Source: a phage. Taken from it: a stretch of 64,000 nt of DNA. Positions 448 to 51,236 of this stretch are shown in pieces; within the stretch, counting starts at the first letter, position 1, and every line of letters begins with the position of its first letter. The stretch lies in the sequence record PZ509022.1, one strand, 5' to 3'. The translations under genes were made by a program, and so were the position numbers. The notes under the pieces are model-generated. The model was given only the letters and a program-made list of their open reading frames with translations. It was not told the origin of the DNA and ran no database searches.

Positions 448-684
448 TCAAATGCAAGTAGTAATTACTCCAGTAGTGCTTATGCAGGTATTACCCATTT
501 GCACACCTAAAGATCCATTTGTATTCACATGAAGATTATCATCAATTTTAACTGATATTTTACCATTAGTGTGAATAACAGTGCTAGATTCAATCACAGG
601 TTGAGTATCATTTTCAACACTAACAAATGGAACTGCTGCTAATGCAACTAAACAAACTGCTAAGCATCCCATAACAATTTTCAT
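448..684 (-). CDS. small secreted or membrane protein
   Basis: ORF track 448..741 trimmed to internal Met (MKIVMGCLAVCLVALAAVPF signal-like); upstream residues are read-through of the early promoter repeat. Confidence 0.45.
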   Translation of the reverse strand: MKIVMGCLAVCLVALAAVPFVSVENDTQPVIESSTVIHTNGKISVKIDDNLHVNTNGSLGVQMGNTCISTTGVITTCI

Positions 685-720
685 TTTATTCTCCAAATCC
701 GTATCAGTAGTTGATAGTTG

Positions 721-751
721 TATAGTACCATGGAAGAACATTCTTGTAAAC
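721..751 (-). promoter_or_regulatory. T4-type early promoter (rc GTTTAC, 18 nt, TACTAT)
   Basis: plus tatagtacc...tgtaaac; same architecture repeated at 12 other sites. Confidence 0.55.
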
Positions 752-828
752 AGTTTTGTGAAAATTTTTTTAGGGAATTCTAAATGTCCAGAATCATCTG
801 TTTTTCATAAGTATAGATTTATATTACT

Positions 829-856
829 TGTATGAAAAAGGGACCCGGAGGTCCCT
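829..856 (-). terminator. hairpin gggacc-cgga-ggtccc followed by U-run on minus strand, downstream of gene 43
   Basis: inverted repeat plus rc CTTTTTC. Confidence 0.6.
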
Positions 857-868
857 AGATTTATTCTA

Positions 869-3565
869 TCAGCCAAACAGGAAGTCTAACGAAGCTTTTT
901 CTTCATAGTCCATACCTGCCGATTCACACATACCAGCAAGCGGTTTAACAAACGATTTTTGGAACAAAGTTGAGTAGTCAATCCAAGACAGTACATCAGA
1001 ACGAATTTCTTTTGGAAGTTCTGTACCCGACGGCCAAGCAATGCACTTATCACCAAATGGATTTCCTTCACGCAATGGAAGAACCATTACCTTATTTCCA
1101 TCCAAAATTGGAGCTACACCTAAACCGCTAACAGCTCGACGATAAGTTAGCACACCACGAATATGGAACGGACATTTAAATCCTGGCCAACCTTTATCAT
1201 CATATTTCGCTATATCGTTCGCAGTTTTTACTTCAGCAATAACTTTATAGTCAAGTTGACGATATTCTTTCTCGAAGTTCTTGTAATATTCTTGGACAGA
1301 CTCTTCACCTTCCTGAAGAATACGACGAATACTTTCTTCGAGAGCTTCTTGGACCGCTTTAGGCGTTGAACTCTGCTGAGTTTCCATACCCATGATTTTT
1401 AGATGCGGTTCAGCAAATCGCTTATCTTCCATATCATAAACGTTCAGAGCATAACGCTTTTTCGCTTTCCAAAATCCACCAACGCCCTTTGAACCAAGTG
1501 GAGGGCAAGAAATAGCTTCACGGTCCATATGCATCAGATGCTCGCGGTTATTCATATAATCACATAACTCACGATATGCAACATCAATCATAGGTTCCAT
1601 CTTTTTCTTACCGAACTGATTCATGAATTCAACTAAATCGTTCTGCTCTTTGAATCGGTCAAGACCAACTTTTTCAATAACTTTATCTACACAAACATAT
1701 ACCGAATCAGTATCACCTGCTGCGATGAAATCTTCGCCATTAGTTCCACATACTTTATTCAGATACTCATTAATTTTACGAGCAATCCACTGAATACCGA
1801 CTTGACCAAAAATTGTAATAGCAGTAGCATTTCGCAAATCATAGTAACGGAAATGAATATTACCAAGAGCACCATAAAGACTGTTAATAAGAATTTTACG
1901 GTTCAGCTGATTTGTGTTAGCAAGTGTAGCTGCTTTTTCACATTCCTCAATCAGACTATTGAGAACGGATTCGGTGTAATTCGATAGTTCATTTAAGAAA
2001 TCATCACTGAACTTAACATATCGTTCAACTTCTGGTTTAGTTGAACAAGACCCTGCGCCTTTCATAATAATCTTTTTAATAGCTTCGGCATTCATTTCTT
2101 CAGCGAACATTTTCTTTTTCCAGTCTTTACGCTGGAAAAATACTTTAGCGATTTCCTTTGGAATGATACCTTCTTGGTGCTTATCATACATCCATCCATT
2201 CGGAGAGCAAGAATATTCATCACTTGGCTTAGGAGCTGTTCCTGCGATATATTCATGAATTGGATGAACTTTAAACTGCCCACGAATAGTCTCAGGACTA
2301 ATGTTAACCTGACGAATAATGCTAGGATACAGAGACGTCAAGTCAAAACTCATAATGTATCGACGAGCAATCGGTTTAGGTTCAAACACAAATGCACCTG
2401 GAAAACTCTGTTTAACGTGCGAACCTTGTTGAGGAATAACCTTATGTTCACCTTTCAGTGAGTTAAAAATAATAGCATCCCAAGTTTTAATAGGACTCAT
2501 TACACCAGAAAAAGGCATTTTAGCGTAATAAGACATACTTAAAACTAGATCGATAAACCCACGAATTTTATCAATTGCTTGAACTGATTCTACGTCAATG
2601 ATGTTATAACTAATGTATCGTTGATGATTAGTCTCACGAAGTTTATTAATAGGACCATCGTACGGCAATTTACCTTTTTTGGTTTCATGTTGAGCAACTG
2701 ATTCCAAAGAGAACGATGGCAAATTAGTAAATGCGAACTTCTTGTATAAATCTAAATAATCAAGAATAGATACGCCATCAATAGAATAAATTTCTTTGCT
2801 ACCGTACATATTTTGAATTAGTTTAGATTTTACTCGACCGATTGGAGAGAAGCGTTTCATACTACGTTCACCGAGAACCATTTTAACACGATTCATGATA
2901 TACGGAACGTCAAATCCCTCAATATTCCAACCGGTAAAAATAGCAGGTCGTTTCTGTTCCCAGAGATTAATATATTCCATGAGCATATCACGCTCATTAT
3001 CAAATGGCATATAAATTACTCGGTCAAGAATTTCTTGAGGAACTTCATCACCACCTTCACAGTCAAGCTTAGCAGCTAACTTTGCATCCCATTTTGATAC
3101 TGAACCGTACATTGAATTCAACAAATCAAAGACGTAAAAACGATCGTCAATTGAATCATAATGAGTGATAGCATCAATTTCATATTCTGCTTTCATTGGG
3201 TCAGGAAATTTATCACCAGTAACCTCAATGTCACAGTTAGCTACACGAACAAATTTTCGGTCATAAGCAATTTCTGAACCATATGTATCACTGATATAAG
3301 CGAGTTTAAAATCGTTCATACCGAGAGCTTCGAGACCAATGTCTTCCATTCGTTTCATCCAGTCTCGTGCATCTTTCATTGATGGAAATTTTTGAGGAGC
3401 ACAATTTTTACCATAAATGTCTTTGTATTTTGACTCTTCCTTACAATGCCTAAACATAGTCGGAAGATATTCTACTTCACGGGTACGTTCCTTTCCATTT
3501 TCATCAATATAACGTTCAACAATGTTATTTCCGACTGTTTCGATAGAGATATAAAATTCTTTCAT
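869..3565 (-). CDS. 43: DNA polymerase (family B, T4 gp43), 898 aa
   Basis: 898 aa, length and sequence as I recall T4 gp43; exo and polymerase motifs (FDIE, YGDTDS). Confidence 0.97.
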   Translation of the reverse strand: MKEFYISIETVGNNIVERYIDENGKERTREVEYLPTMFRHCKEESKYKDIYGKNCAPQKFPSMKDARDWMKRMEDIGLEALGMNDFKLAYISDTYGSEIAYDRKFVRVANCDIEVTGDKFPDPMKAEYEIDAITHYDSIDDRFYVFDLLNSMYGSVSKWDAKLAAKLDCEGGDEVPQEILDRVIYMPFDNERDMLMEYINLWEQKRPAIFTGWNIEGFDVPYIMNRVKMVLGERSMKRFSPIGRVKSKLIQNMYGSKEIYSIDGVSILDYLDLYKKFAFTNLPSFSLESVAQHETKKGKLPYDGPINKLRETNHQRYISYNIIDVESVQAIDKIRGFIDLVLSMSYYAKMPFSGVMSPIKTWDAIIFNSLKGEHKVIPQQGSHVKQSFPGAFVFEPKPIARRYIMSFDLTSLYPSIIRQVNISPETIRGQFKVHPIHEYIAGTAPKPSDEYSCSPNGWMYDKHQEGIIPKEIAKVFFQRKDWKKKMFAEEMNAEAIKKIIMKGAGSCSTKPEVERYVKFSDDFLNELSNYTESVLNSLIEECEKAATLANTNQLNRKILINSLYGALGNIHFRYYDLRNATAITIFGQVGIQWIARKINEYLNKVCGTNGEDFIAAGDTDSVYVCVDKVIEKVGLDRFKEQNDLVEFMNQFGKKKMEPMIDVAYRELCDYMNNREHLMHMDREAISCPPLGSKGVGGFWKAKKRYALNVYDMEDKRFAEPHLKIMGMETQQSSTPKAVQEALEESIRRILQEGEESVQEYYKNFEKEYRQLDYKVIAEVKTANDIAKYDDKGWPGFKCPFHIRGVLTYRRAVSGLGVAPILDGNKVMVLPLREGNPFGDKCIAWPSGTELPKEIRSDVLSWIDYSTLFQKSFVKPLAGMCESAGMDYEEKASLDFLFG

Positions 3566-3625: not shown

Positions 3626-3643
3626 AAGGGGCCGAAGCCCCTT
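3626..3643 (-). terminator. UUCG-loop hairpin aaggggc-cgaa-gcccctt
   Basis: perfect inverted repeat; rc loop UUCG. Confidence 0.45.
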
Positions 3644-16234: not shown

Positions 16235-18048
16235 TGGTGTTTAACCCTATGCATGATTTCTTTATTTTTACCGAGATTAAATCCGCGTTCGTTCGGATTT
16301 CCCAAATAACCACATGTTCTTCTTATTGTGTTCATCTTTTTAGGATCAGTTTCTCCACAAATAGAACAAACAAATCCGTTTTCAGTAGGAGTCATTTCAT
16401 GGGTACTTCCGCATGTAAAACATTTATCTACTGGCATATTAACACCAAAATAATCTAAATGTTGTGCAGCATAATCCCATACGGCCTCAAGGCCTTTTAA
16501 GTTATTTTTCATATCAGGAAGTTCAACATAAGAAATGTGACCACCTGTCGCAATGAAATGATATGGCGCTTCACGAGAAATCTTTTCAAACGGAGTAATA
16601 TTTTCTTCTACTGAAACATGGAAACTATTAGTGTACCAGCCTTTATCAGTAACATCCTTTACACTTCCATATTTCTCAGTATCAAGTTTACAGAAGCGAT
16701 AGCACAGGTTTTCAGCAGGAGTAGAATACAAGCTAAAAGCAAAACCAGTTCTTTCAGTCCACTGCTTAAGACGAGCATTCATTTTAGTTAAAATTTCTTG
16801 TCCAATATCACGACCGACAAGAATATTCAATTCGTGAATACCAATGTATCCTAGGGACACTGAACTTCTACCGTTTTTAAATAACTCAATTATGTCGTCA
16901 TCAGGTTTAAGACGAACCCCGAATGCACCTTCTTGGTAAAGAATAGGAGCAACAGTAGCTTTAACTCCTTTTAAGGAACTAATTCTACACATCAAAGCTT
17001 CAAAACATAAATCCATTCGTTCATTAAATAGCTCAACAAATTTCTGTTCATTGAATTGTGTTCCAATATAAGAATCTAACGCGATGCGAGGAAGATTCAG
17101 TGTTACAACACCAAGATTATTACGTCCATCAAGAATTTCATTACCAGTCGAATCTTTCCATACGCTCAAGAAACTACGGCAACCCATTGGAGAAACAGGA
17201 ACAGATGAACCAGTGATAGCTTTATTGTTCTTAGCTGAAATAATATCAGGATACATCCTTTTGCTTGCACACTCTAGAGCAAGCTGCTTAATATCATAGT
17301 TCGGATCGTCTTTGTAAAGATTAACGCCTTCTTCGACGAACATAACAAGCTTAGGGAAAATAGGAGTTATCCCATCACGACCGAGACCTTTAATACGATT
17401 TTTCAGAATTGCTTTCTGAATCATTCGTTCAGTCCAGTCAGTTCCCGTACCAAATGTAATTGTTACAAAAGGCGTTTGTCCGTTTGAACTAAAGAGAGTA
17501 TTTACTTCATATTCATAAGCTTGGAATGCATCGTATACGTCTTTTTCTGTTTTAGATTGAGCATAATTCAACGCATCAGCGATTTGCCATTTTTCTGCAT
17601 CCTCAATATGTTTTGCATATGTGCGTTTAACATAAGGAGAAAGTACTTTATCTACATTAGCAAAAGTCGTTCCGCCGTATTGGTGAGAAGCAACCTGTGC
17701 AGTAATTTGTGCCATAATTGCAGTAGCAACGCCAATTGATTTAGGAGTTTCAATTTGAGCATTGCCTAATTTAAATCCATTCTCAAGCATTCCTTTTAAA
17801 TCTACTAAACAGCAATTAGTAAAAGGCAATGATATACTGTAATCTAAATCGTGAAAATGAATTAATCCGACATTATGAGCATTTACAATATGGCTCGGAA
17901 GAATACTACAAGCGATATGTTTAGAAACAATACCGGCCATTAAATCTCTTTTTGTTGGAAAGACACGAGAATCTTTGTTGGCATTTTCGGTATTTAATTC
18001 TTTATCTTTATTTGAAATAAAATTTAAAACATCTTTCTCTAAAGACAT
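16231..18048 (-). CDS. nrdD: anaerobic ribonucleoside-triphosphate reductase NrdD, uninterrupted (605 aa)
   Basis: 605 aa single ORF; C-terminal zinc ribbon and glycyl radical region. Confidence 0.95.
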   Translation of the reverse strand: MSLEKDVLNFISNKDKELNTENANKDSRVFPTKRDLMAGIVSKHIACSILPSHIVNAHNVGLIHFHDLDYSISLPFTNCCLVDLKGMLENGFKLGNAQIETPKSIGVATAIMAQITAQVASHQYGGTTFANVDKVLSPYVKRTYAKHIEDAEKWQIADALNYAQSKTEKDVYDAFQAYEYEVNTLFSSNGQTPFVTITFGTGTDWTERMIQKAILKNRIKGLGRDGITPIFPKLVMFVEEGVNLYKDDPNYDIKQLALECASKRMYPDIISAKNNKAITGSSVPVSPMGCRSFLSVWKDSTGNEILDGRNNLGVVTLNLPRIALDSYIGTQFNEQKFVELFNERMDLCFEALMCRISSLKGVKATVAPILYQEGAFGVRLKPDDDIIELFKNGRSSVSLGYIGIHELNILVGRDIGQEILTKMNARLKQWTERTGFAFSLYSTPAENLCYRFCKLDTEKYGSVKDVTDKGWYTNSFHVSVEENITPFEKISREAPYHFIATGGHISYVELPDMKNNLKGLEAVWDYAAQHLDYFGVNMPVDKCFTCGSTHEMTPTENGFVCSICGETDPKKMNTIRRTCGYLGNPNERGFNLGKNKEIMHRVKHQ

Positions 18049-18860
18049 AATTCTAATTTATCCTTTTGAAATTCTTCGTCTAAATATGGGTTCCAACCCA
18101 TTTTAAACCTTTTGATGAAATTATCAATTCTAAATTTCGGTAAATTTAACTCCGCAAAAATAGATGATTTACTTTTAAAATCTGGACCTAAATAATCATA
18201 TAAAATTTCTGCGTATTTTAACCATAATATATAAGTACCAGATTTAATTGCTCTAGGAGTTTTCCAAGGTTTTACGCCGTACATCGGATTTCCACTTCCT
18301 TTATGCCTGATAGAAGATGAAATTCCAATTTTAATTTTAGCTTCCTTTGTGTGCGAAAATCCATGATGTGGATTTTCTTTCCAGTATTTTTTAGAAGCTT
18401 CTGATATTTTCTTTCTGGCTAAATTAGTATGATGCTTTCCATAAAATCCATGATTTTTACCTTTATTACGATTTCTTTTAATCATGGTTATTGATTGCTT
18501 TTCTCTAGTTTCTTTAGAAGGGGAAACACCGTACGTTGTAAATTGACCATTAGCATATGCTAAATTAAAATACTCTTTATTCCATATATCTTTTTCTATA
18601 TTCTTTTGAAATTCAGCTTCAATGCTAGTTATTTGTTCATCTCCGACTAATTGAAAATATAATATTTCAACTTTCGGTGTTTCTTTCAACAGAGCTTTTT
18701 GAAATTCGGAAGATGACGAAGACGAATAATAAAATTTACCATTTTTATCAATAATATTCGTTCCGTCAAAAGTGCAATTGGTTTTACTTCCAATATAATA
18801 ATATGGCGGGGTTTTAGCATTAATTCTACTAATAAATGATAGTTTATATACTACATTCAT
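18039..18860 (-). CDS. Seg-like GIY-YIG homing endonuclease candidate with NUMOD3-like repeats (273 aa)
   Basis: N-terminal VYKLSFI...YYYIGSKTN; repeats GKNHGFYGKHHTNLARKKISEA and NPHHGFSHTKEAKIKIG. Confidence 0.6.
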   Translation of the reverse strand: MNVVYKLSFISRINAKTPPYYYIGSKTNCTFDGTNIIDKNGKFYYSSSSSSEFQKALLKETPKVEILYFQLVGDEQITSIEAEFQKNIEKDIWNKEYFNLAYANGQFTTYGVSPSKETREKQSITMIKRNRNKGKNHGFYGKHHTNLARKKISEASKKYWKENPHHGFSHTKEAKIKIGISSSIRHKGSGNPMYGVKPWKTPRAIKSGTYILWLKYAEILYDYLGPDFKSKSSIFAELNLPKFRIDNFIKRFKMGWNPYLDEEFQKDKLELCL

Positions 18861-21176: not shown

Positions 21177-22102
21177 TTCAATACCTCAATAGCATTACGT
21201 AAACCATTTGCTTTTGCATTAAGAGCTTTTAACAATTTAGTGTGTTCGGCAATCTGAGCTTCAACTTCAACTAGTCGAGATTTGAGGTATTCACGTTCTT
21301 CGCTCAAGTTATCAATCTTTTCTACTTTAGGCTCTTTTACAACTGTCTTATATGTATTAGGGTTCTTCAGTTTAATTAAAATGCGTGAACTGTATAACAT
21401 TGAACCATTATCTTCGGTTTCGTCATACATTTCTACTACATCCATAATTTTTAACATCATGCGGAGTTTATAAGACAACGAACGAATAGTTTTGTTGTGC
21501 TTATTAATTTCTTTAGCTGTCATGGTGCCGAGATTACGTGAGTAATAATAAGGAACCTGGATATTAATTAATACTGATGAACCACCTGGCTTGTGTGTTA
21601 CTTCATCAGCAATAACCCAATCTTTAACATGAACTTTATTTGTACGATTATCGCCACCTGTGAATAATTTACAAGAATGTTTAAAAAGCATATTCACTTG
21701 GTTATTGAATTCACAAGCAAATTTATCAGCAAATTTAGTTTCAGGAATGGTAGATAACCAATCAGCTAAATGAGTCTTTTTAACATCGTTAATAATAGTA
21801 AATTCAACCAAATCGGTTATAGATGTCGCAGTTTTAATGAAGCTCGGCTTCATAAAGTTTTTAATGTTATCACGAGCTACAGTAGAAGATAACATACGAG
21901 AACGTTTGAACCATTGAAGCAACGTCCCTAACGAATGAGAATAAGCGTTTTGAGTATCTTTACAGATATGATTTTCCTGGCCAACATATTGAAGGAAATC
22001 ACGAAGAATATTATTGATTACTGCTCTGTGTCCGATCTGATAATTACGGTGTTTAGTAATAAGACTGTCAAAATAATCAATATAATGTTTACGAGTTTTC
22101 AT
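21173..22102 (-). CDS. hypothetical protein with C-terminal coiled coil (309 aa)
   Basis: ORF track; heptad-like C-terminus. Confidence 0.55.
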   Translation of the reverse strand: MKTRKHYIDYFDSLITKHRNYQIGHRAVINNILRDFLQYVGQENHICKDTQNAYSHSLGTLLQWFKRSRMLSSTVARDNIKNFMKPSFIKTATSITDLVEFTIINDVKKTHLADWLSTIPETKFADKFACEFNNQVNMLFKHSCKLFTGGDNRTNKVHVKDWVIADEVTHKPGGSSVLINIQVPYYYSRNLGTMTAKEINKHNKTIRSLSYKLRMMLKIMDVVEMYDETEDNGSMLYSSRILIKLKNPNTYKTVVKEPKVEKIDNLSEEREYLKSRLVEVEAQIAEHTKLLKALNAKANGLRNAIEVLK

Positions 22103-22154
22103 GTTCTTCTCACTTGGTTAATGATTTATACTCCGAGCCATCCTTGGCTTTAAA

Positions 22155-23156
22155 TTACTTAATTAACTGTAAAGCTTGTTCCAGACGATCAAGACGATTA
22201 ACAGATTCTTCCCAAATCCTTTTAGCCTGCTCATATTCTTTCTGCGCTTTATTAGAAATTTCTAGAACTTCTTTATAAGCTTTTTCTAGTGCAATAACTT
22301 CTGGACGAATTTCTACCGGTTCAGGTGAATCGTCAAGACATTCCATTAGTTCCTCAAGGGTAGTTTCTTCTTTAGGAGTATTCACAATTTCATCACATTT
22401 TTGTTGGTAAATTTCTTTATCAGTAGGTGAATAAGCACATTTCACTTCACGAAGGCTAATTACGAGTTTATATCCTTCCCAACCGCATATATTCTTAAAA
22501 GGATATGTATGAATATTTTCTACTGTTTCCATACAAAGTAATGCGGTCTCTAATTGACGAGTTATAGTGCTAGCAATTGAGAAAAATTTATTAATATTCT
22601 TTTGGTTAGTTTCTGGTGTAAAAAATCCATAATTCACAAAAATAGATACTTTATTTTTATCAAGTTCATATTCTTTTATGATAATCATATCAGAAGCCAA
22701 AGGATGAATTTGACGATAATCGCCATAACATAATTTAGAAGCTGATTTTAGAATCTGTCCTTTGAAAAGTCTGAAATTACTAATCCAACGACGAGTAAAA
22801 ATATTCTCAGGGTCTTCTTTATTATTAAGATGATAAGAATTAACATCACCGAACCAATTATATCCTACTACATCTTTGGTTCGTTTAATTTCTTTCCCAA
22901 AATTACCAAGAATATCCCGATTAACCAAATATGAAAGAAGACGAGACTCTTTAAAGGTTTTCTTGATAACATCTTTATCTACACGACTAGAAATTTTACG
23001 AATTTCATGAATAAATTTAGTAGAAGAAACAATACTTGCATCAACACTATTGAGCCATTGATTGATAATAGAAAGAACGATATTTTGACCAAACATCGGT
23101 ATAGCTTTATCATCAATAACGCTATTGAATGATTTGATATATTCGTTACGAGTCAT
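22155..23156 (-). CDS. hypothetical protein with C-terminal coiled coil (333 aa)
   Basis: ORF 22155..23207 trimmed so the early promoter lies upstream. Confidence 0.5.
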   Translation of the reverse strand: MTRNEYIKSFNSVIDDKAIPMFGQNIVLSIINQWLNSVDASIVSSTKFIHEIRKISSRVDKDVIKKTFKESRLLSYLVNRDILGNFGKEIKRTKDVVGYNWFGDVNSYHLNNKEDPENIFTRRWISNFRLFKGQILKSASKLCYGDYRQIHPLASDMIIIKEYELDKNKVSIFVNYGFFTPETNQKNINKFFSIASTITRQLETALLCMETVENIHTYPFKNICGWEGYKLVISLREVKCAYSPTDKEIYQQKCDEIVNTPKEETTLEELMECLDDSPEPVEIRPEVIALEKAYKEVLEISNKAQKEYEQAKRIWEESVNRLDRLEQALQLIK

Positions 23157-26603: not shown

Positions 26604-27572
26604 TTATTTCAGAAGAGTAACCTCAGCAATTTCTTCCCAACCGTTTTTGTCGGTCATAATAAAGTCAGCAAGATAAAGAGCAGTACGCAGTGAAACATTG
26701 CGTAAACGGTTAACATTGACTTTCATCCATGATAATGCTTTATAAGTTTCTTCATCAGAAAGACCACGCTTTTGCATCATGTCGGTTGAAAGAATAACAT
26801 CTTCAACCCTGACCATAATTTCTTCATTAGTGTGAACACCCAAATCCAAATAAACTGAGCGGGACACTAATGCTTGTAAATGTGGAGCAAGTTTAGTACC
26901 ACGGTCTAATTCGCGGTCAATGTCAACGTTTGTGATAAAAACAATCGTTCCTTTAAATTCAAACTCACGCTCAATGCCTTTTTCTTCTAAGTAAGAAGAT
27001 GCAGTGCTCCAGCAGACTTTACGGGTCTCTCCAGTGTCCAGAGCAGCTTTCAGAAGATTAAGAATGTCCATATCAGAGAAAACATCCACATCATCAATCA
27101 AAAGGACAGAATTCTCTTCACGATTATTCCAAAGCTGTTCATAAAGACCGATACCGGAGATTTTACCGTTAATGCTTTTATATTCAATGTATCCATTGTC
27201 ATTTGCTTTATTTAAAGCTTTATCTAAAGAATACGTTTTACCAATACCCGCCGCACCAGAGATAATTAATGAACGAATGTTTCCGTTAATAATACCATTC
27301 GTCATCATTCCCATAACATTAAATCTTTTATTAATGCGGGTTTTCATATCTTCATACGATTCTTTAACTTCTTCAACTTTTACACCATCATATGAAATGT
27401 CTGATTTGTAAACCCAAACGCCGCGACGCTTACCGTCAATTTCAACAAAAACTTTACCATCTCCTTGTGCATCTACCGGAGCATTATCTGGGAACCATTC
27501 GCCTAAGAGCTCAAAAGTTCCAGAGATTTCTTTACCGAAGTAGATACCCTTATTGATAGTTACAGTTTTCAT
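26604..27572 (-). CDS. P-loop NTPase, AAA-like (322 aa)
   Basis: Walker A GAAGIGKT, Walker B VLLIDDVD. Confidence 0.6.
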   Translation of the reverse strand: MKTVTINKGIYFGKEISGTFELLGEWFPDNAPVDAQGDGKVFVEIDGKRRGVWVYKSDISYDGVKVEEVKESYEDMKTRINKRFNVMGMMTNGIINGNIRSLIISGAAGIGKTYSLDKALNKANDNGYIEYKSINGKISGIGLYEQLWNNREENSVLLIDDVDVFSDMDILNLLKAALDTGETRKVCWSTASSYLEEKGIEREFEFKGTIVFITNVDIDRELDRGTKLAPHLQALVSRSVYLDLGVHTNEEIMVRVEDVILSTDMMQKRGLSDEETYKALSWMKVNVNRLRNVSLRTALYLADFIMTDKNGWEEIAEVTLLK

Positions 27573-27629
27573 TTTATTCTCCTTTGATTTGATAGGACTA
27601 CTATAACATAATCCTATCAGTTTGTATAC

Positions 27630-27830
27630 TTATTTTGACATTTCTTCGATGTCACGACGATACCCGTCACGAACTTCACGAAGAGCTTCAAGGCCACACA
27701 TAGGCTCGATACCTGTAATGTGAACTTGATTAATCTGATACTCTACATCTTCTAACTGAGCGAAAACATAACGACGTTCAGCTGCACAACCAGATTTAGC
27801 TTTACCGAAACGCTTATTCAAAGTAGTCAT
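27630..27830 (-). CDS. hypothetical protein (66 aa)
   Basis: ORF track, early promoter upstream. Confidence 0.4.
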   Translation of the reverse strand: MTTLNKRFGKAKSGCAAERRYVFAQLEDVEYQINQVHITGIEPMCGLEALREVRDGYRRDIEEMSK

Positions 27831-27867
27831 TTTGTATCTCCAATTTACTCATTTGTTTTGATAGGTC

Positions 27868-27898
27868 TATAGTATCAACAACTACAGACCATGTAAAC
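27868..27898 (-). promoter_or_regulatory. T4-type early promoter
   Basis: plus tatagtatc ... tgtaaac. Confidence 0.5.
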
Positions 27899-27901
27899 AA
27901 T

Positions 27902-28165
27902 TTATTTTAATTTTCGCCAAATTTTTACTGCTTCTCGCCTCGATACTTCTACGGCGCCAAGTTCTATAGCTTTTTGACGACGACTTGCACGTAAGTCATA
28001 ATGTTTAATGCGTTTATCTTGAAACCAAGAACGTTTCATTCCTATTGCTTCTGCCATTTCGTGAAGCTCTTCAATATCTCCATCAGTGAACATATGACAA
28101 TTTTTAGTTGGATGACCGCGAAGTTTCCATCCATGATTCATTAAAACATCTACGTAAACTGTCAT
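27902..28165 (-). CDS. hypothetical protein (87 aa)
   Basis: ORF track. Confidence 0.45.
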   Translation of the reverse strand: MTVYVDVLMNHGWKLRGHPTKNCHMFTDGDIEELHEMAEAIGMKRSWFQDKRIKHYDLRASRRQKAIELGAVEVSRREAVKIWRKLK

Positions 28166-28345
28166 TGATTCTTCTCCAAATAAGTTTCGATAATTTTCTG
28201 GGCGAGATAAACCGCGTTATCTTCAGTTGCGTCTTCTAAGAAACTTTCAAAACACTCTGAAATTTCTTCTGTATCAATCAACTTTTTTACTTCAATTGGT
28301 GTAATTTTCATTTTGTTTTCCGTTTAAGTGTTTGTTTTGATAGTT

Positions 28346-28377
28346 GTATAGTACCATAAAGCTTTATGCTTGTAAAC
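28346..28377 (-). promoter_or_regulatory. T4-type early promoter
   Basis: plus tatagtacc ... tgtaaacaactttgtgaaaa. Confidence 0.5.
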
Positions 28378-28407
28378 AACTTTGTGAAAAATTTTTGAAA
28401 TAAAAAA

Positions 28408-28428
28408 GGAGCCCGAAGGCTCCCTATC
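28408..28428 (-). terminator. UUCG-loop hairpin ggagcc-cgaa-ggctcc plus U-run
   Basis: rc gives hairpin followed by TTTTTTATTT. Confidence 0.65.
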
Positions 28429-31416: not shown

Positions 31417-31540
31417 TACATACTCCTTTGAATAATATCAATAATGTTGTTCACCAGATTATAAGTAAACATTGGGTAATTATATTGAATCATCACATAC
31501 ACAACAAACAAAACTTTCATTCTCTTCTCCTTGGCAGTTG

Positions 31541-31578
31541 ACAAGATTACTATACCATAACCTTGTCAACTTGTAAAC
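31541..31578 (-). promoter_or_regulatory. T4-type early promoter
   Basis: plus tactataccat ... tgtaaac. Confidence 0.45.
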
Positions 31579-32358: not shown

Positions 32359-32390
32359 GTATAGTACCACAACTCAAACGGAAAGTAAAC
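32359..32390 (-). promoter_or_regulatory. T4-type early promoter
   Basis: plus tatagtacc ... agtaaac. Confidence 0.5.
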
Positions 32391-32397
32391 CGGTAAA

Positions 32398-32420
32398 ATG
32401 AAAAAAGTCTCCCGAAGGAG
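32398..32420 (-). terminator. UUCG-loop hairpin gtctcc-cgaa-ggagac plus U-run
   Basis: rc hairpin followed by TTTTTTCATTTT. Confidence 0.65.
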
Positions 32421-32427
32421 ACTAATG

Positions 32428-35704: not shown

Positions 35705-36166
35705 TCATTGAGTTTTAATTACTGCTTTAGAAGCCTTTCCTGGTAAACGACGACTGTTGATAATTGCCATCCTACATTGAAGTGACGGGTCTTTGAACTT
35801 CGCGTTAGGTTTACAAACTGTAAATCCAAGCCAAAGATTTCCATCTGTGATTTCTAAACGTCCAGGACGATATTCAACCCCATCAATAAAATCCTCGTCA
35901 ATGTCAGGACGCGGAGGCATACTCAGGAATTCATTAACTTCTAAAACATGGTCTTTTATTTTATGGAATAATTCAAAAACATATGTCTCATCAATCTCCC
36001 GTTGAATTGCACGATCAAGAAGATGTTGAGAATATTTTAGATGAAACGATGAGACTCCTGCTGCTTTTGATGCCTCACGAATCTCATTGTTAATTTGACG
36101 AAACTCCGACTCAAAGTGACGACGAAGCTTATTTCGACGGATAAAAACTTCTGTATTGATAGTCAT
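35705..36166 (-). CDS. regB: RegB endoribonuclease (153 aa)
   Basis: 153 aa at the T4 regB position with early promoter upstream. Confidence 0.7.
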   Translation of the reverse strand: MTINTEVFIRRNKLRRHFESEFRQINNEIREASKAAGVSSFHLKYSQHLLDRAIQREIDETYVFELFHKIKDHVLEVNEFLSMPPRPDIDEDFIDGVEYRPGRLEITDGNLWLGFTVCKPNAKFKDPSLQCRMAIINSRRLPGKASKAVIKTQ

Positions 36167-36193
36167 GTTATTCTCCTCTTAACTGATAGAAAA

Positions 36194-36223
36194 ATTATAC
36201 CACAGTCAAGAGGAAAAGTAAAC
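36194..36223 (-). promoter_or_regulatory. T4-type early promoter (rc GTTTAC, 18 nt, TGG TATAAT)
   Basis: plus attataccac ... gtaaac. Confidence 0.55.
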
Positions 36224-38363: not shown

Positions 38364-38780
38364 TTAAATGTAAATATTTTTGCCGTAATACTTATACCAG
38401 TGTGGCTTCATTAAAATTTTTTCATCGAGTCGTTGTTGACTCAACTTAATAGCTGATTTGCATGGATTATAATCATTTTTCCATTCTACTGGAATATCGC
38501 TGATGTCAGGAACTTCAGTATCTTTTATACTGAACCCGCGTTTTAAGCATTCCGTTATAATGTCCGATTGACGCTTTCGCAAAAATTCTAACTTATCGTA
38601 AAAGAAAGTAACATGACCAGAACCTAAAATAAATTTAGAAGATATTTTAAAATCTTTAACACGCTTACCATTTGCCACATGCTTACGAACTATACCAAAA
38701 ACACGCGGCAATTCACGGTATTCTGCGATTAAATGTTGATCAGCAAGTTCAGATACTAAAGTCAAATTAATACGAGTCAT
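38364..38780 (-). CDS. denV: endonuclease V, pyrimidine-dimer DNA glycosylase (138 aa)
   Basis: 138 aa, N-terminal [17 protein letters not shown] as in T4 DenV. Confidence 0.9.
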
Positions 38781-38803
38781 TTTATCCCTCCAAGTAACTG
38801 TGA

Positions 38804-38835
38804 ATATACTATCACAATTCTAGGAGAAAGTAAAC
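38804..38835 (-). promoter_or_regulatory. T4-type early promoter
   Basis: plus atatactatcac ... gtaaac. Confidence 0.5.
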
Positions 38836-42247: not shown

Positions 42248-42348
42248 AGTATTTCCTTAGGTTAATTGAGATTTAAAATCCGTAGGAGTATAATACTCTA
42301 TCGTCAAATTATAGGCTCATAATATCTCAATCATGAGCCTGCGTAAAC

Positions 42349-42612
42349 TTATTTCATATTATTGAAATATTCTTCTGCGATTTCGTCGTTATCATGGTAA
42401 ACTTTAGAAGACAGTTTAACATAACCTTCTGCTGTGAACATATTAATCACAACTTTTACAGTATACCACTGACCGTCTTCATTACCCATTACTGCGTAAG
42501 TTTCAAACATCGGATGATCAGGACCGATAACTTTAATATCATTCACTGTACGACCGAAATATTCTGAAACGCATTTCATAAAGAAGTTGAACAGTTCGCC
42601 GTAATTATCCAT
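42349..42612 (-). CDS. hypothetical protein (87 aa)
   Basis: ORF 42349..42732 trimmed to MDNYGELF; upstream residues are promoter-repeat read-through. Confidence 0.45.
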   Translation of the reverse strand: MDNYGELFNFFMKCVSEYFGRTVNDIKVIGPDHPMFETYAVMGNEDGQWYTVKVVINMFTAEGYVKLSSKVYHDNDEIAEEYFNNMK

Positions 42613-42654
42613 TTCATTCTCCAAGTTGTTTTCTGTATCAGTAGTTGATAGTTG

Positions 42655-42685
42655 TATAGTACCATGGAAGAACAGAGATGTAAAC
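42655..42685 (-). promoter_or_regulatory. T4-type early promoter (near-identical copy of the 721-751 element)
   Basis: plus tatagtaccatggaagaaca...tgtaaacagttttgtgaaaa. Confidence 0.55.
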
Positions 42686-42797
42686 AGTTTTGTGAAAAAA
42701 TTTTTAGGGAATTCTAGGGCAGGGATGGGCAATTAAAGGATAGGATAATATATTATAAAGGGTATAAACTAAATGATGCCTAGAGAGGTCCAGAAAG

Positions 42798-42826
42798 GCC
42801 TAGATACCAAAAAGCCCTATCATTTA
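42798..42826 (-). terminator. hairpin plus U-run on minus strand
   Basis: rc atccctatc-taaat-gatagggc followed by TTTTT. Confidence 0.5.
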
Positions 42827-42841
42827 GATAGGGATTTAAAA

Positions 42842-43405
42842 TTATTTACCTAGTTTACTTATTATAGCTTCTGCAGCAGCTTTTAGCTTAGATGCAGTGT
42901 TAATACGATTTTTAATTTCAGTATACGCATCGCCAAGAACATCAAGGCTATCAGAATAAACACTTACACTATTGCGTTCGCTATTTGAAATAGAACCTTT
43001 AGTTTTGCGGTCAAAATCGGTGTACACGTCTTGAAGATCGCGGGCTGCCTTCTTTGCATCATCCAATGCATCAAGAGCTTTATTCAAAGCATTAACGTAT
43101 TTTTTAGTGTCGAACATATTCTTAGAAATTTTAACAGGTGCGCGTTCAGGAGTAGCTAACACAGATTTAGGAACCTGAGCGCCAGATGCCAATTTCTTAG
43201 AAATTTTGAAAAATGCTTTATTGAATTTATTTTCTTGACTCATTGTAAAAGAACTATTATCGATGTTGTACATTTCAATAGCTTTAGCTTTCCACTTAAG
43301 AAAATCGCCGCGGTCTTTTGGGTCCAATTGGAAGAATACTTTAGTAAGATCTGCTTCAGATGGTAATTTTGCTGCTTCGGTTAAAAATTCGGCATAGGTT
43401 TTCAT
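42842..43405 (-). CDS. internal-protein-like, N-terminal capsid-targeting-like sequence MKTYAEFLTEA (187 aa)
   Basis: N-terminus resembles the T4 IP targeting peptide as I recall it (MKTYQEFIAEA); Glu-Ala junction consistent with prohead protease processing. Confidence 0.5.
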   Translation of the reverse strand: MKTYAEFLTEAAKLPSEADLTKVFFQLDPKDRGDFLKWKAKAIEMYNIDNSSFTMSQENKFNKAFFKISKKLASGAQVPKSVLATPERAPVKISKNMFDTKKYVNALNKALDALDDAKKAARDLQDVYTDFDRKTKGSISNSERNSVSVYSDSLDVLGDAYTEIKNRINTASKLKAAAEAIISKLGK

Positions 43406-43496
43406 TTAAAATCCTTGAAATAATTTATCGGTTGGTTATTAATTATTTATTACTTTGTTACTATCCGTAACAGCGTTATCCGAGTGATTCAAACTA

Positions 43497-43530
43497 AAAA
43501 GCCCCAACCTTTCGGTCGGGGCTAAGCCTT
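43497..43530 (-). terminator. rho-independent terminator closing the tRNA/stable-RNA unit
   Basis: rc gccccgaccgaaaggttggggc followed by TTTTTAGTTT. Confidence 0.6.
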
Positions 43531-43834
43531 GCGGCAACCTTGTCGGGGTTCCACCTGCTAAGGCAAGTGTTTGTACGAAACGCCGGGATTCGAACCCGGT
43601 TATTAAGCAGTTGACGCTACTCAATATTTTTAAAAGGCCATATCTCGACCATATCCGAACGTTCCGTCAAAAACGCTACTCGGCTTACGGCAAAGATATT
43701 TCCTCGAATCGATAATTCGGTGCGCCGTTTCTGCTGTGATGTAAGGGGATATTAACAAATCGTAAAGATTTGTTAAGACCAGTCCTTACTCAGGGAACAT
43801 CAGTCCGACGACTTACCGGTAGCGACCCGGTTTC
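43531..43834 (-). ncRNA. candidate stable small RNA(s) distal to the tRNA island (analogous to T4 RNA C/D)
   Basis: about 300 nt without credible ORF, locally GC-richer, T-arm-like ccgggTTCGAATcccgg element on minus strand, bounded by a terminator; boundaries approximate. Confidence 0.35.
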
Positions 43835-44201: not shown

Positions 44202-44277
44202 TGGTCGAGGCAGTAGGGATCGAACCTACGACCTAGGACTTAGAAGGTCCTTGCTCTTCCTTCTGAGCTATGCCCCG
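44202..44277 (-). tRNA. tRNA-Arg (anticodon UCU)
   Basis: hand-folded cloverleaf; AC stem AGGAC/GTCCT, loop CTTCTAA; CCA encoded. Confidence 0.8.
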
Positions 44278-44281
44278 TAAT

Positions 44282-44357
44282 TGGGGTGACCGATGGGAGT
44301 CGAACCCATGACTACGAGAATCACAATCTCGAGTTCTACCAACTGAACTACGGCCAC
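44282..44357 (-). tRNA. tRNA-His (anticodon GUG)
   Basis: hand-folded; loop TTGTGAT; T-loop TTCGACT; discriminator C. Confidence 0.7.
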
Positions 44358-44471
44358 ATTAATACCTACTCCAACAATCAAGATGTCTTCACACGAAATT
44401 AAGAGAAGAGTGATCAGTTCAACCCCGATAATCGCGTCAAGTAGATATTAATGTGACAATTGTCACAAATT

Positions 44472-44546
44472 TGGCGGACGTGATAGGATTCGAACCTATA
44501 ACCAATCGCTTAACAGGCGATCGCTCTGCCATTGAGCTACACATCC
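44472..44546 (-). tRNA. tRNA-Asn (anticodon GUU)
   Basis: hand-folded; AC stem ATCGC/GCGAT, loop CTGTTAA. Confidence 0.75.
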
Positions 44547-44550
44547 AAAT

Positions 44551-44637
44551 TGGTGGGGAGTGATGGAGTCGAACCACCCGAGTCGCAATGACAATGGATT
44601 TACAGTCCACACCGCTACCTCTACGGGATAACTCCCC
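44551..44637 (-). tRNA. tRNA-Tyr (anticodon GUA), class II with long variable arm
   Basis: hand-folded; loop CTGTAAA; 15-nt variable arm. Confidence 0.7.
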
Positions 44638-44650
44638 TTAATTCTTAATT

Positions 44651-44725
44651 TGGTGGCCCTGGGTGGAATTGAACCACCATCTGGCGATTATGAGTCGCTT
44701 GCTTGAACCTTCCAGCTACAGGGCC
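44651..44725 (-). tRNA. tRNA with CAU anticodon (Ile2 or Met)
   Basis: hand-folded; loop CTCATAA; order after Ser-Thr matches the T4 Ile position. Confidence 0.7.
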
Positions 44726-44726
44726 T

Positions 44727-44802
44727 TGGTGCTGATTGACGGAATCGAACCGCCGACCTTCTCATTACAAGTGAGTTGCTCTACCTACTGAGCTAAATCA
44801 GC
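44727..44802 (-). tRNA. tRNA-Thr (anticodon UGU)
   Basis: hand-folded; loop CTTGTAA. Confidence 0.75.
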
Positions 44803-44807
44803 AAAAC

Positions 44808-44897
44808 TGGCGGAGGCGATAGGATTTGAACCTATGAGTCGCCGGAGCGACTGCCGGTTTTCAAGACCGGTGCATTAAACCACTCTGCCACGCCTCC
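44808..44897 (-). tRNA. tRNA-Ser (anticodon UGA), class II
   Basis: hand-folded; AC stem CCGGT/ACCGG, loop CTTGAAA, long variable arm. Confidence 0.8.
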
Positions 44898-44900
44898 AAA

Positions 44901-44908
44901 TATTTATA
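44901..44908 (-). promoter_or_regulatory. possible late promoter (rc TATAAATA) between segB and tRNA-Ser
   Basis: plus tatttata; only 4 nt from tRNA 5' end, so uncertain. Confidence 0.25.
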
Positions 44909-45554
44909 TATTGTTAATTTGATTTAGAATTCTTTTTGCTTGAGTATGACTTACACCAATATGCTTAGCATATTTAGATAATTCACCACGCTTAGAAAAA
45001 TCATATAATTTAGAAATTTCTATTCTTCTTTTTCTTTCATCCGCCGAAACTTTTGCTTCGTTTGCTTTTGCTATTTTACGTTTAGCTTCTTGAGAGTGAG
45101 TTTTACCAGCAAAGCCATTCTTCATTAATCCATTTGAAGACCATCCTTTTAATTTTCCGTTAGAATGTGCCTTTTTAACACCCAATGAAATTAATTCGCG
45201 TTGCTGGTCTGTCATAGGATAATTATTTATATGATCCCATCCACCTTCACCACCAAGTTTTAAATTATACACATCTGGTCTATTTAAAAACTCTTCCGTG
45301 ACAATATTTTTCTCGGCTTCAAGCATAGATTCTTTATCATCAAAATACTCTAATATTTCTTTAGAAAAATTTTCTATACCATACTTATCTTGGGCTCTTT
45401 TTAATAATTTACCAGAACCCATATATCCATCATCTAAATTTTCGGTAGAATGCACACCAATATAAATTTTATTATTAATTTTATTTGTTATTTTATAAAG
45501 ATAAAAATGCATATCAGTCCCTAATAAAGAACTGAGCGTCTCACGACGAGTCAT
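44904..45554 (-). CDS. segB: GIY-YIG homing endonuclease SegB (216 aa) inside the tRNA island
   Basis: FYLYKITNKINNKIYIGVH GIY-YIG motif; NUMOD3-like GKTHSQEAKRKIAKA. Confidence 0.85.
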   Translation of the reverse strand: MTRRETLSSLLGTDMHFYLYKITNKINNKIYIGVHSTENLDDGYMGSGKLLKRAQDKYGIENFSKEILEYFDDKESMLEAEKNIVTEEFLNRPDVYNLKLGGEGGWDHINNYPMTDQQRELISLGVKKAHSNGKLKGWSSNGLMKNGFAGKTHSQEAKRKIAKANEAKVSADERKRRIEISKLYDFSKRGELSKYAKHIGVSHTQAKRILNQINNI

Positions 45555-45558
45555 AAAT

Positions 45559-45632
<74 letters not shown>

Positions 45633-45637
45633 AAATT

Positions 45638-45724
45638 TGGTGCGAGAAGTGGGACTCGAACCCACAAGGAAATCATTCCGCAGCATTTTAAGTGCTGTGC
45701 CTTTACCAATTTGACCATTCTCGC
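45638..45724 (-). tRNA. tRNA-Leu (anticodon UAA), class II
   Basis: hand-folded; AC stem CAGCA/TGCTG, loop CTTAAAA. Confidence 0.8.
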
Positions 45725-45725
45725 G

Positions 45726-45799
45726 CTGGGAATAAAGGACTCGAACCTTTGCATCCTGGAATCAAAATCCAGTGCCTTACCAACTTGGCTAATTCCCAA
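45726..45799 (-). tRNA. tRNA-Gln (anticodon UUG), CCA apparently not encoded
   Basis: hand-folded; acceptor TGGGAAT/ATTCCCA, AC stem CTGGA/TCCAG, loop TTTTGAT. Confidence 0.75.
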
Positions 45800-46800: not shown

Positions 46801-46833
46801 GGTAATAGTATCACAACTAAAACCCTATGTAAA
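46801..46833 (-). promoter_or_regulatory. T4-type early promoter
   Basis: plus taatagtatcac ... tgtaaacaactttgtgaaa. Confidence 0.5.
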
Positions 46834-46852
46834 CAACTTTGTGAAATATTTA

Positions 46853-47140
46853 TTACAAAAGATTTTTAGCAATAATCTTGAGATGTGCTGCAGAAATGTG
46901 TTTAGCTTTAAACAACGCAGTTTCTTCGGCAGGAGAGATAACGATTGTAGCACCATCCTTTTTAGCAGACCACCCATCACCTAGGTAAACAGTACCTTTG
47001 ATTTCTTCGCCATCAACCAAGCTAATCATTGGTTTACCTTCTCGTCCTTTATTTGCTTTAATAACTTCAGAAGTAAGAGTAGCCTCGGTAATGGTAGAAA
47101 CCGGGGTAGTTGTAGAAGTAAATTCTTTAAATGTTTTCAT
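46853..47140 (-). CDS. ipI: internal protein I-like (95 aa) with N-terminal MKTFKEF targeting-like peptide
   Basis: 95 aa at the T4 ipI position just upstream of 57B; own early promoter. Confidence 0.55.
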   Translation of the reverse strand: MKTFKEFTSTTTPVSTITEATLTSEVIKANKGREGKPMISLVDGEEIKGTVYLGDGWSAKKDGATIVISPAEETALFKAKHISAAHLKIIAKNLL

Positions 47141-47168
47141 TTTATTTTCCTAATTAATTTTGATGAGA

Positions 47169-47200
47169 TAATAGTATCACTACCTCATCAACGTGTAAAC
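47169..47200 (-). promoter_or_regulatory. T4-type early promoter
   Basis: plus taatagtatcac ... tgtaaacaactttgtgaaa. Confidence 0.5.
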
Positions 47201-50645: not shown

Positions 50646-51236
50646 ATGCTCTTTACATTTTTTGATCCGATTGAATATGCGGCCAAAACGGTGAATAAAA
50701 ACGCGCCGACTATTCCTATGACAGATATTTTTAGAAACTATAAAGACTATTTTAAACGCGCTCTTGCGGGATACCGCTTACGTACTTACTATATTAAAGG
50801 TTCACCACGCCCGGAAGAATTAGCAAATACTATATATGGAAATCCACAGCTGTATTGGGTTTTATTGATGTGTAATGATAATTATGATCCATATTATGGA
50901 TGGATTACTTCACAAGAAGCAGCTTATCAAGCATCTATACAAAAATACAAAAATGTGGGTGGAGACCAGATAGTATATCATGTGAATGAGAACGGTGAAA
51001 AATTTTATAATTTAATATCATACGATGATAATCCATATGTTTGGTATGATAAAGGTGATAAAGCTAGAAAATATCCTCAATATGAAGGAGCACTTGCTGC
51101 GGTCGATACGTATGAAGCGGCTGTTCTTGAAAATGAAAAACTTCGTCAAATAAAAATAATAGCAAAATCAGACATTAATTCATTTATGAACGACCTTATA
51201 CGTATAATGGAGAAATCTTATGGAAATGATAAGTAA
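50646..51236 (+). CDS. 53: baseplate wedge protein gp53 (196 aa)
   Basis: 196 aa, precedes gp5. Confidence 0.85.
   Translation: MLFTFFDPIEYAAKTVNKNAPTIPMTDIFRNYKDYFKRALAGYRLRTYYIKGSPRPEELANTIYGNPQLYWVLLMCNDNYDPYYGWITSQEAAYQASIQKYKNVGGDQIVYHVNENGEKFYNLISYDDNPYVWYDKGDKARKYPQYEGALAAVDTYEAAVLENEKLRQIKIIAKSDINSFMNDLIRIMEKSYGNDK

Follow-up and report, generated by a model that had tools for sequence, protein, structure and literature searches.

Two near-identical stretches of minus-strand DNA in this phage, one preceding imm.1 and the other preceding e.8, are very probably paralogous early promoter cassettes of the T4 type, which can also act as crossover junctions of the kind described for promoter-early stem-loop (PeSL) cassettes. 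This reading, which draws on the sequence and its relatives, combines a well-defined promoter anatomy, an identity between the two copies that extends far past the promoter consensus, and a set of gene-content differences among related phages whose boundaries fall inside such cassettes.

The stretch analysed, called the window here, comprises 64,000 nucleotides of record PZ509022.1. Its first 3 kb matches more than 500 Tequatrovirus (T4-like) genomes, and over these 3 kb the closest relatives are Escherichia phages WilhelmHis and UTI-E2, at 99.8% identity. According to the annotation of relatives and of T4, the minus strand holds the early genes, beginning with imm.1 (57-437) and gene 43 (869-3565) and continuing through 45, 46, 47, 55, nrdD, the nrdC region, tk, regB, denV and e, after which come e.1-e.8, the tRNA cluster, ipI, 57B and genes 1, 3, 2 and 4. 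The plus strand from about 50.6 kb codes for late baseplate genes. Several elements of this layout were recorded in passing. Between nrdD and gene 49 lies a 273-aa ORF with a NUMOD3 motif (18039-18860), similar to free-standing homing endonucleases, which constitutes an 867-nt insertion missing from T4, T2, ACG-C40 and HY01. The tRNA cluster (44202-45798) codes for ten tRNAs (Arg, His, Asn, Tyr, Met, Thr, Ser, Gly, Leu and Gln) compared to eight in T4, is split by a GIY-YIG/NUMOD3 Seg-like ORF (44904-45554) and is rearranged in all comparisons. A non-coding stretch at 43439-43560 contains a strong terminator (AGCCCCGACC-GAAA-GGUUGGGGCU followed by a U run, 43500-43523), which, judging by position, probably matches the 3' terminus of rnaC, a small stable RNA of T4. 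The 24-nt periodic direct repeat at 52687-52830, with at least five units inside the plus-strand 575-aa ORF 51220-52947, corresponds to the beta-helix repeat (VxGxxxxx) of gp5, the tail-lysozyme/needle protein, and is ordinary.

The initial annotation had described a near-identical, promoter-containing repeat of about 90 bp at 690-780 and 42630-42720, and the present comparison bears this out. In a repeat search, the top direct repeat of the whole window was 698-782 / 42632-42716 (85 nt, 92% identity, ungapped), and a gapped alignment extends the pair to 682-782 (about 101 nt) and 42610-42716 (about 107 nt) on the minus strand, with about 100 nt in common. The similarity starts at TAGAATTCCC and ends at the ATG; beyond these limits the loci have nothing in common, either in the flanks or in the two ORFs downstream. 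The longest exact run in the pair is 40 nt, and the window has exactly two occurrences of a 34-nt core, with none expected from 100 shuffles. Over 90 aligned promoter positions the copies are 87% identical, while the next best of the 91 promoter pairs reaches 64% and the mean is 48% (sd 8%); the two loci thus share much more than the short promoter consensus. Most of the differences that separate the copies are locus-specific and alike in the window and in T4: four of six spacer positions after the -35, a G versus an A after GATAC, and a 6-nt insert in the leader. An assembly artefact or a recent duplication was considered as the source of the pair and rejected, since the pair is found in T4 and in all relatives examined.

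Both blocks contain a complete T4-type early promoter cassette. On the imm.1 side (copy 1, 682-782, minus strand), where T4 has the same cassette, an UP-like A/T-rich block with TTTTCACAAAACT (752-782) precedes the -35 element GTTTAC (746-751; TTTACA at 745-750), a 17-nt spacer ending in TGg (728-730) and the -10 element TACTAT (722-727); by its spacing, transcription would start near A715, followed by the Shine-Dalgarno (SD) sequence GGAG (691-694) and the ATG (682-684). The e.8 cassette (copy 2, 42610-42716, minus strand), with orthologues in T4, T2, ACG-C40, HY01, RB69 and phi25-307, likewise has an UP-like block upstream of its GTTTAC (42680-42685), a TACTAT at 42656-42661, a presumed start near 42649, a 5'UTR with the 6-nt insert relative to copy 1, a GGAG at 42619-42622 and an ATG at 42610-42612. 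A consensus scan placed TTTACA-17-TACTAT with an upstream TG at 750-722 and 42684-42656. In both cassettes TACTAT is followed by the conserved start region ACAACTATCAAC and then by a leader of 30-36 nt, GGAG and ATG, and no leader RNA structure was predicted in either copy (folding z of 0.0 and +1.2). Membership among the T4-type early promoters was judged on the -35/spacer/-10 arrangement, on the TGn and UP-like block, and on a position on the early strand with an SD and ATG, all of which are present.

From these elements the imm.1- and e.8-side blocks are predicted to be strong early promoters used immediately after infection. In each, the host sigma-70 RNA polymerase would read the UP-like block, the -35, the 17-nt TGn spacer and the TACTAT; as all the elements of the 'uber' promoters are combined with an unstructured GGAG leader, the cassette should fire immediately after infection and yield a freely translatable mRNA, as T4 orthology also suggests. 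Copy 1 would drive the imm.1/imm block and copy 2 e.8 (phrog_2678; 42349-42612, minus strand). A search of the literature for mapping of the imm.1 and e.8 promoters found nothing, and no remark on the near-identity of the two was found in the papers on T4 early promoters and PeSLs that were consulted.

In T4, imm.1 (DUF5481) is driven directly by copy 1. In the window, the first ORF of the block is instead an accessory one of 78 aa (phrog_4189; 448-684, minus strand) with a hydrophobic N-terminus, placed between copy 1 and imm.1. It is present in 326 phage records and missing in T4, its place is taken by other ORFs in T2, and its junction relative to T4 falls at the microhomology ATGAAAAT. The WilhelmHis GenBank record gives this ORF as 97 aa (448-741), with a start at 741 that makes it run through its own promoter; the SD at 691-694 and the ATG at 684 correspond to 78 aa, as in the annotation of ACG-C40. 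Its N-terminus, MKIVMGCLAVCLVALAAVPFVSV, resembles a signal or lipoprotein peptide.

The two long copies belong to a larger promoter family. Shorter versions had been noted at 13 or more sites, a count now confirmed: the minus strand has 17 matches to GTTTAC-N16-18-TAnnnT and the plus strand one, with about one expected in shuffled sequence, and 14 of the 17 minus-strand matches were judged credible from their upstream context. All 14 have the -35, the TGn, the -10 and the CTATCAAC start region in common, and the upstream AAAAAAATTTTCACAAAACT block of the long copies is found in four other promoters. Minus-strand members of the family include P26197 (26168-26197), which lies upstream of the nrdC.8 homologue and whose spacer AAGACTGTTCTTCCGTGG matches that of copy 1; P15026 (14997-15026), which carries the TTTTCACAAAGTT block and showed no breakpoint; P36223 (36194-36223), upstream of regB; and P23214 (23185-23214), upstream of the nrdC.4 homologue. 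Such a shared set of elements, together with the extra consensus regions that T4 early promoters are known to have (PMC2988021), would also be compatible with pure functional convergence of very strong promoters, involving neither common descent nor a role in recombination. This explanation is very unlikely, given that the 87-92% identity of the two copies extends across the non-consensus spacer (TGTTCTTCCATGG) and 21 leader nucleotides, that other equally canonical promoters average 48%, and that cassette segments recombine in a mix-and-match manner among loci and phages. Identity that continues past the consensus, across the whole spacer and the leader, argues for common ancestry of the copies.

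The same conserved leader and spacer could conceivably represent a common regulatory operator, either a protein-binding or a processing site, that co-regulates imm.1, e.8 and nrdC.10 post-transcriptionally. The -10/leader/SD half of copy 1 does precede nrdC.10 as well in T4, T2 and HY01, which places this module before three different genes, and it is nearly invariant across at least nine genomes. Nevertheless, an operator is improbable, as no RNA structure is predicted, the leaders differ by the 6-nt insert and in SD context, there is no known binding protein, and the conservation is no higher than that of neighbouring coding DNA.

The distribution of the two copies among related phages is in keeping with paralogous promoter cassettes. 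In the T4 reference one identical 34-nt core precedes imm.1 and another precedes e.8, and the pair is also present at these two loci in ACG-C40, HY01, T2 and IMG/VR contigs; in T2 the e.8 copy is intact and the imm.1-side copy diverges in the 5'UTR. A 109-nt query returned 7-10 matches per genome among the full-length Tequatrovirus records listed, of 547 matching records. The long pair is a conserved feature of T4 and of all Tequatroviruses examined, at fixed loci, and is not peculiar to this phage. The Mosigvirus genomes RB69 and phi25-307 have the e.8 copy only, 94-96% identical to copy 2 of the window, and in these genomes a generic early promoter precedes the imm.1-like gene, which has a different location (dmd ... 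imm ... sp). Since Mosigvirus phages also carry it, the e.8 copy looks older in sequence comparison and the imm.1 copy appears to be a Tequatrovirus-specific duplicate, a direction of duplication (e.8 to imm.1) that is based on two Mosigvirus genomes. Window 42349-42900 and RB69 72936-73523, which cover the e.8 locus together with DNA lying upstream of its promoter, agree at 93-96%, a value that seems high across genera and may indicate recent exchange; had the e.8 locus been transferred recently, its copy could seem ancient without being so. An exceptional cross-genus conservation of the e.8 cassette itself was rejected, the flanking DNA being equally conserved. In phi25-307 (NC_055734.1, 166216-167369) the imm.1-like gene and imm are located between dmd and sp (spackle) and not at genes 43/42, which implies that the superinfection-immunity module has moved between genera.

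It is possible, though doubtful, that the cassette is a unit copied whole onto new genes and more than a passive stretch of homology, with a possible second layer of hairpins around the -10 in other promoters. The imm.1/imm module would then have captured the e.8 cassette when it was placed next to gene 43 in Tequatrovirus, and nrdC.10 would have captured the -10/leader/SD half.

The initial annotation had proposed the two copies as potential recombination substrates flanking about 42 kb, a proposal that the comparison of genomes did not uphold. An active substrate of this type would yield 42-kb deletions, duplications or circles. The pair does offer 40 nt of exact identity and 85 nt at 92% in direct orientation, and T4 recombination can use patches of less than 50 bp, according to the citation of Singer 1982 in PMC2839356. 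The spacer of copy 1 is mosaic among phages, with AAGA[A/C]T in seven sequences and the short e.8-type allele ATCCC[T/C] in HY01, G8 and one IMG/VR contig, and this common spacer allele is the only trace of interaction between copies 1 and 2. However, none of the nine genomes compared is rearranged between the loci, and a 42-kb deletion would be inviable because the direct repeats surround the essential genes 43, 62, 44, 45, 46, 47, 55 and others. A 42-kb duplication would exceed the headful. Exchange between the copies is also rare, since each locus keeps its own diagnostic differences in the window and in T4 alike. Recombination of the two copies across the 42 kb is therefore an unlikely activity of the pair.

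Direct repeats invite a further reading, in which the copies are attachment (att) sites or the ends of an integrated or mobile element, and the GenBank record of T6 (AP018814.1, 24507-24546) indeed has a 40-nt misc_feature 'attL' exactly on the repeat core (window about 700-740). T-even phages are known as strictly lytic. The core consists, at both loci, of the promoter -10 and start region before an ORF; the 42 kb in between hold the core replication genes 43, 44, 45, 62, 46, 47 and 55, with the DNA polymerase, clamp and clamp loader, gp46/47 and gp55 among their products, and are not a dispensable mobile segment; the pair occupies fixed positions in all relatives examined; and the annotation tables of T4, T2, ACG-C40 and HY01 list no integrase in the region. 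The att-site reading was accordingly rejected as having next to no probability, and the T6 'attL' label is probably an artefact of an automated (prophage) att-site finder.

The role of the cassettes as crossover junctions was assessed in relation to the PeSL model. The statement that mobile promoter/stem-loop cassettes have been described in T4-type phages is supported by the literature: the model was published for RB49/phi1 (Arbiol et al. 2010, PMC2839356), and PeSLs were described explicitly for T4/PST, with the consensus TTTACW-N17-TAYWAT (Comeau et al. 2014, PMC4122927). For a survey of breakpoints, window 1-51000 was aligned to nine genomes and the matches were chained; the genomes were T4, T2, ACG-C40 and HY01 together with five IMG/VR Tequatrovirus contigs. 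These five were the only Tequatrovirus contigs among the IMG/VR protein look-ups, the matches from other genera being too divergent for nucleotide breakpoints and hence left out.

The clearest recombination junction is promoter P28377 with its abutting nrdC.11 terminator (28348-28425, minus strand; C(UUCG)G loop at 28406-28425). Five phages share here the nrdC.11 terminator (AGGGAGCC-UUCG-GGCUCCC), the UP block and GTTTAC, and two alleles part directly after the -35, one leading into small ORFs or nrdC.10 and the other into an ORF for a ModB-like ADP-ribosyltransferase. In HY01 a tandem terminator-promoter unit stands on either side of the ModB-like ORF, the two units sharing about 40 nt, while T4 has a single unit without the ORF, the arrangement expected from recombination between tandem cassettes. 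This contrast between HY01 and T4 is the one indirect hint at the excised mini-circles that the PeSL model predicts from recombination of flanking copies. The slot of this ModB-like RNA polymerase ADP-ribosyltransferase, between tandem terminator-promoter units, is located at 22078-22563 in T2, 27556-28041 in ACG-C40 and 27517-28002 in HY01; its equivalent in the window (27583-28360) holds three small ORFs, one of them DUF4031, and there are none in T4. Together with P28377, promoter P27898 (27869-27898, minus strand), whose -10 lies inside a 10-bp hairpin, brackets two small ORFs missing from T4.

Further boundaries inside cassettes were found at other minus-strand members of the family. The breakpoint between T2 and the window lies at about +12 of copy 1, in the 5'UTR, and leads into different ORFs. 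The variable slot of ipI (internal protein) has one boundary inside P46834 (46805-46834), upstream of trna.4; the ipII/ipIII insertion of T4 ends inside P38835 (38806-38835), upstream of denV, having entered the 5'UTR region (38785-38790); and the e.7 indel, between e.6 and e.8, ends inside P42348 (42319-42348). The T4/window indels at copy 1 and at P28377 end at the start codon, with overlaps of 14-17 nt. Similarity between the copies stops at the ATG, which agrees with the PeSL description, where the motif has its 3' end in the SD and start codon of the ORF that follows.

The direct cases (P28377, copy 1 in T2, ipI, ipII/ipIII and e.7) support in part the earlier suggestion that such cassettes bracket accessory ORFs. 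Among 51 distinct indel or replacement events, 11 touched one or more of the 14 cassettes with a boundary, the other 40 had no boundary in an early-promoter cassette, and in none of the 51 did the two boundaries fall in two different cassettes of the window. When the correspondence between accessory-gene boundaries and cassettes in relatives was examined over the nine genomes, the answer was similarly divided. Nine of 65 breakpoint clusters lie inside cassettes, which make up 3.2% of the sequence (binomial p=2e-4), yet a breakpoint was present at 8/14 promoter-bearing junctions and at 34/92 other junctions, a difference that is not significant (OR 2.3, Fisher p=0.13). Six of the 14 promoter junctions are invariant across the nine genomes, and many of the remaining breakpoints are at or near overlapping gene ends or represent homing-endonuclease insertions. 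The cassettes thus appear to be crossover points, but only one of several routes by which modules are exchanged, since polymorphism at promoter junctions does not significantly exceed that at other junctions.

A plausible mechanism follows the PeSL model. Runs of tens of identical bases link the long cassettes with each other and with about a dozen weaker relatives, and these runs would allow the homologous recombination of T4 to cross over inside cassettes. In this manner unrelated accessory ORFs may be swapped, inserted or lost between co-infecting relatives, and PeSL-type exchange of this sort would account for about a fifth of the gene-content differences in the region, not for most of them.

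Stem-loops accompany the promoters less regularly than the initial annotation implied. Both of its examples of promoters next to UUCG hairpins, at 28346-28428 and 32359-32420, are correct: P28377 and P32390, the latter with an abutting CUCC-UUCG-GGAG terminator at 32406-32423 (whole unit 32361-32423, minus strand), have a stem-loop 24-38 nt upstream. Nonetheless, of the eight sense-strand C(UUCG)G hairpins (at 3626, 5794, 10505, 11775, 14144, 28406, 32406 and 41630) these two alone, 28406 and 32406, abut an early promoter, so that "frequently" overstates the association. The nearest hairpin to copy 1 is the intrinsic terminator of gene 43 (AGGGACC-UCCG-GGUCCCU with a U run; 839-856, minus strand), about 90 nt upstream of the -35. 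For copy 2 it is a terminator-like hairpin after the ORF 42842-43405 (42815-42833, minus strand), about 130 nt upstream of the -35, and this hairpin belongs to a 659-nt ORF-plus-hairpin insertion missing from T4, T2 and ACG-C40.

A different kind of hairpin was observed around the -10 of other promoters in the family, and it is the most interesting by-product of the analysis. Minus-strand hairpins of 10-15 bp at 47160-47191, 42313-42340, 31536-31571, 27864-27890 and 27590-27619 hold the -10 in the loop or apical stem, the spacer supplying the 5' arm and the first transcribed bases the 3' arm. The four that were folded have z-scores of -3.4 to -6.1, while 27590-27619 comes from the hairpin scan only, and complementarity between the spacer and the downstream bases is enriched (permutation p about 0.004). 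One example is P47200 (47171-47200, minus strand), upstream of ipI, with its -10 inside a 12-14-bp hairpin. Another is P31578 (31549-31578, minus strand), where a 14-15-bp hairpin has the -10 in its loop and, among relatives, one of its stem pairs shows a compensatory change, A-U > G.U > G-C; the G.U step suggests that the structure is selected in the sense (read-through) RNA. A hairpin of this type would form only in read-through RNA, and may thereby cause read-through and locally initiated transcripts to be treated differently. At P38835 (denV, 38780-38835) and P36223 (regB, 36166-36223) the spacer sequences CTCC and CCTCTT are complementary to the downstream Shine-Dalgarno, so that the SD could be masked in transcripts entering from upstream, but not in those begun at the local promoter. 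In T4, read-through RNA of genes e and 49 masks the ribosome-binding site, and the hairpins described here resemble that device by analogy.

The present work adds little beyond annotation, as the feature is already known in kind: T4 has the same pair, and promoter cassettes as crossover points of accessory genes have been published. Its interest is low because elements of this kind are known from the best-studied phage. The analysis illustrates that a reading of the sequence alone can pick out the T4 early promoters and the PeSL idea. It also introduces a quantitative caution, in that cassettes mark about a fifth of the gene-content changes over 50 kb in nine Tequatrovirus genomes, next to other exchange routes such as homing endonuclease insertions and overlaps at gene ends. 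For automated pipelines, the lesson is that the repeat can be mislabelled as att (the T6 record) and the ORF after copy 1 over-extended through the promoter (the WilhelmHis record).

Several known systems bear comparison with the elements of this region. Tuerk et al. reportedly described C(UUCG)G tetraloop hairpins between the genes of T4 in 1988, and the eight GC-stem C-UUCG-G hairpins of the window are likewise intergenic and on the sense strand; as terminators or RNA stabilisers they make up a class of their own, and only two of the eight are associated with an early promoter. The polymorphism of the T4 internal-protein (IP) locus (Repoila et al. 1994, as discussed in PMC2839356) has its counterpart in the ipI slot (46818-47105), which is also replaced here relative to T2, ACG-C40, G8 and others, with boundaries at P46834 and at the conserved ipI leader beside P47200; this likeness concerns neighbouring promoters and not the long pair.

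With the PeSLs the cassettes share the composite of an early promoter ending in SD and ATG, at some promoters preceded by a terminator hairpin, the location at variable ORFs with breakpoints inside the motif in some cases, and the T4/PST consensus, which fits all copies. They differ in that the nearest hairpins of the two long copies are not adjacent, that an abutting UUCG terminator is found at only 2 of the 14 promoters, and that most gene-content differences in this region do not involve a cassette. The closest correspondence is with the T4 early promoters, known as 'uber' sigma-70 promoters for their UP/-35/TGn/-10 architecture (PMC2988021): the -35 GTTTAC(A), the 17-nt spacer, the TGn, the -10 of the type TAnnAT, the A/T-rich upstream block, the early-strand position before early genes and the GGAG SD all recur. 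The T4 reference has these same two promoters in front of imm.1 and e.8, and nothing essential differs, the one addition here being the 78-aa ORF between the imm.1 promoter and imm.1.
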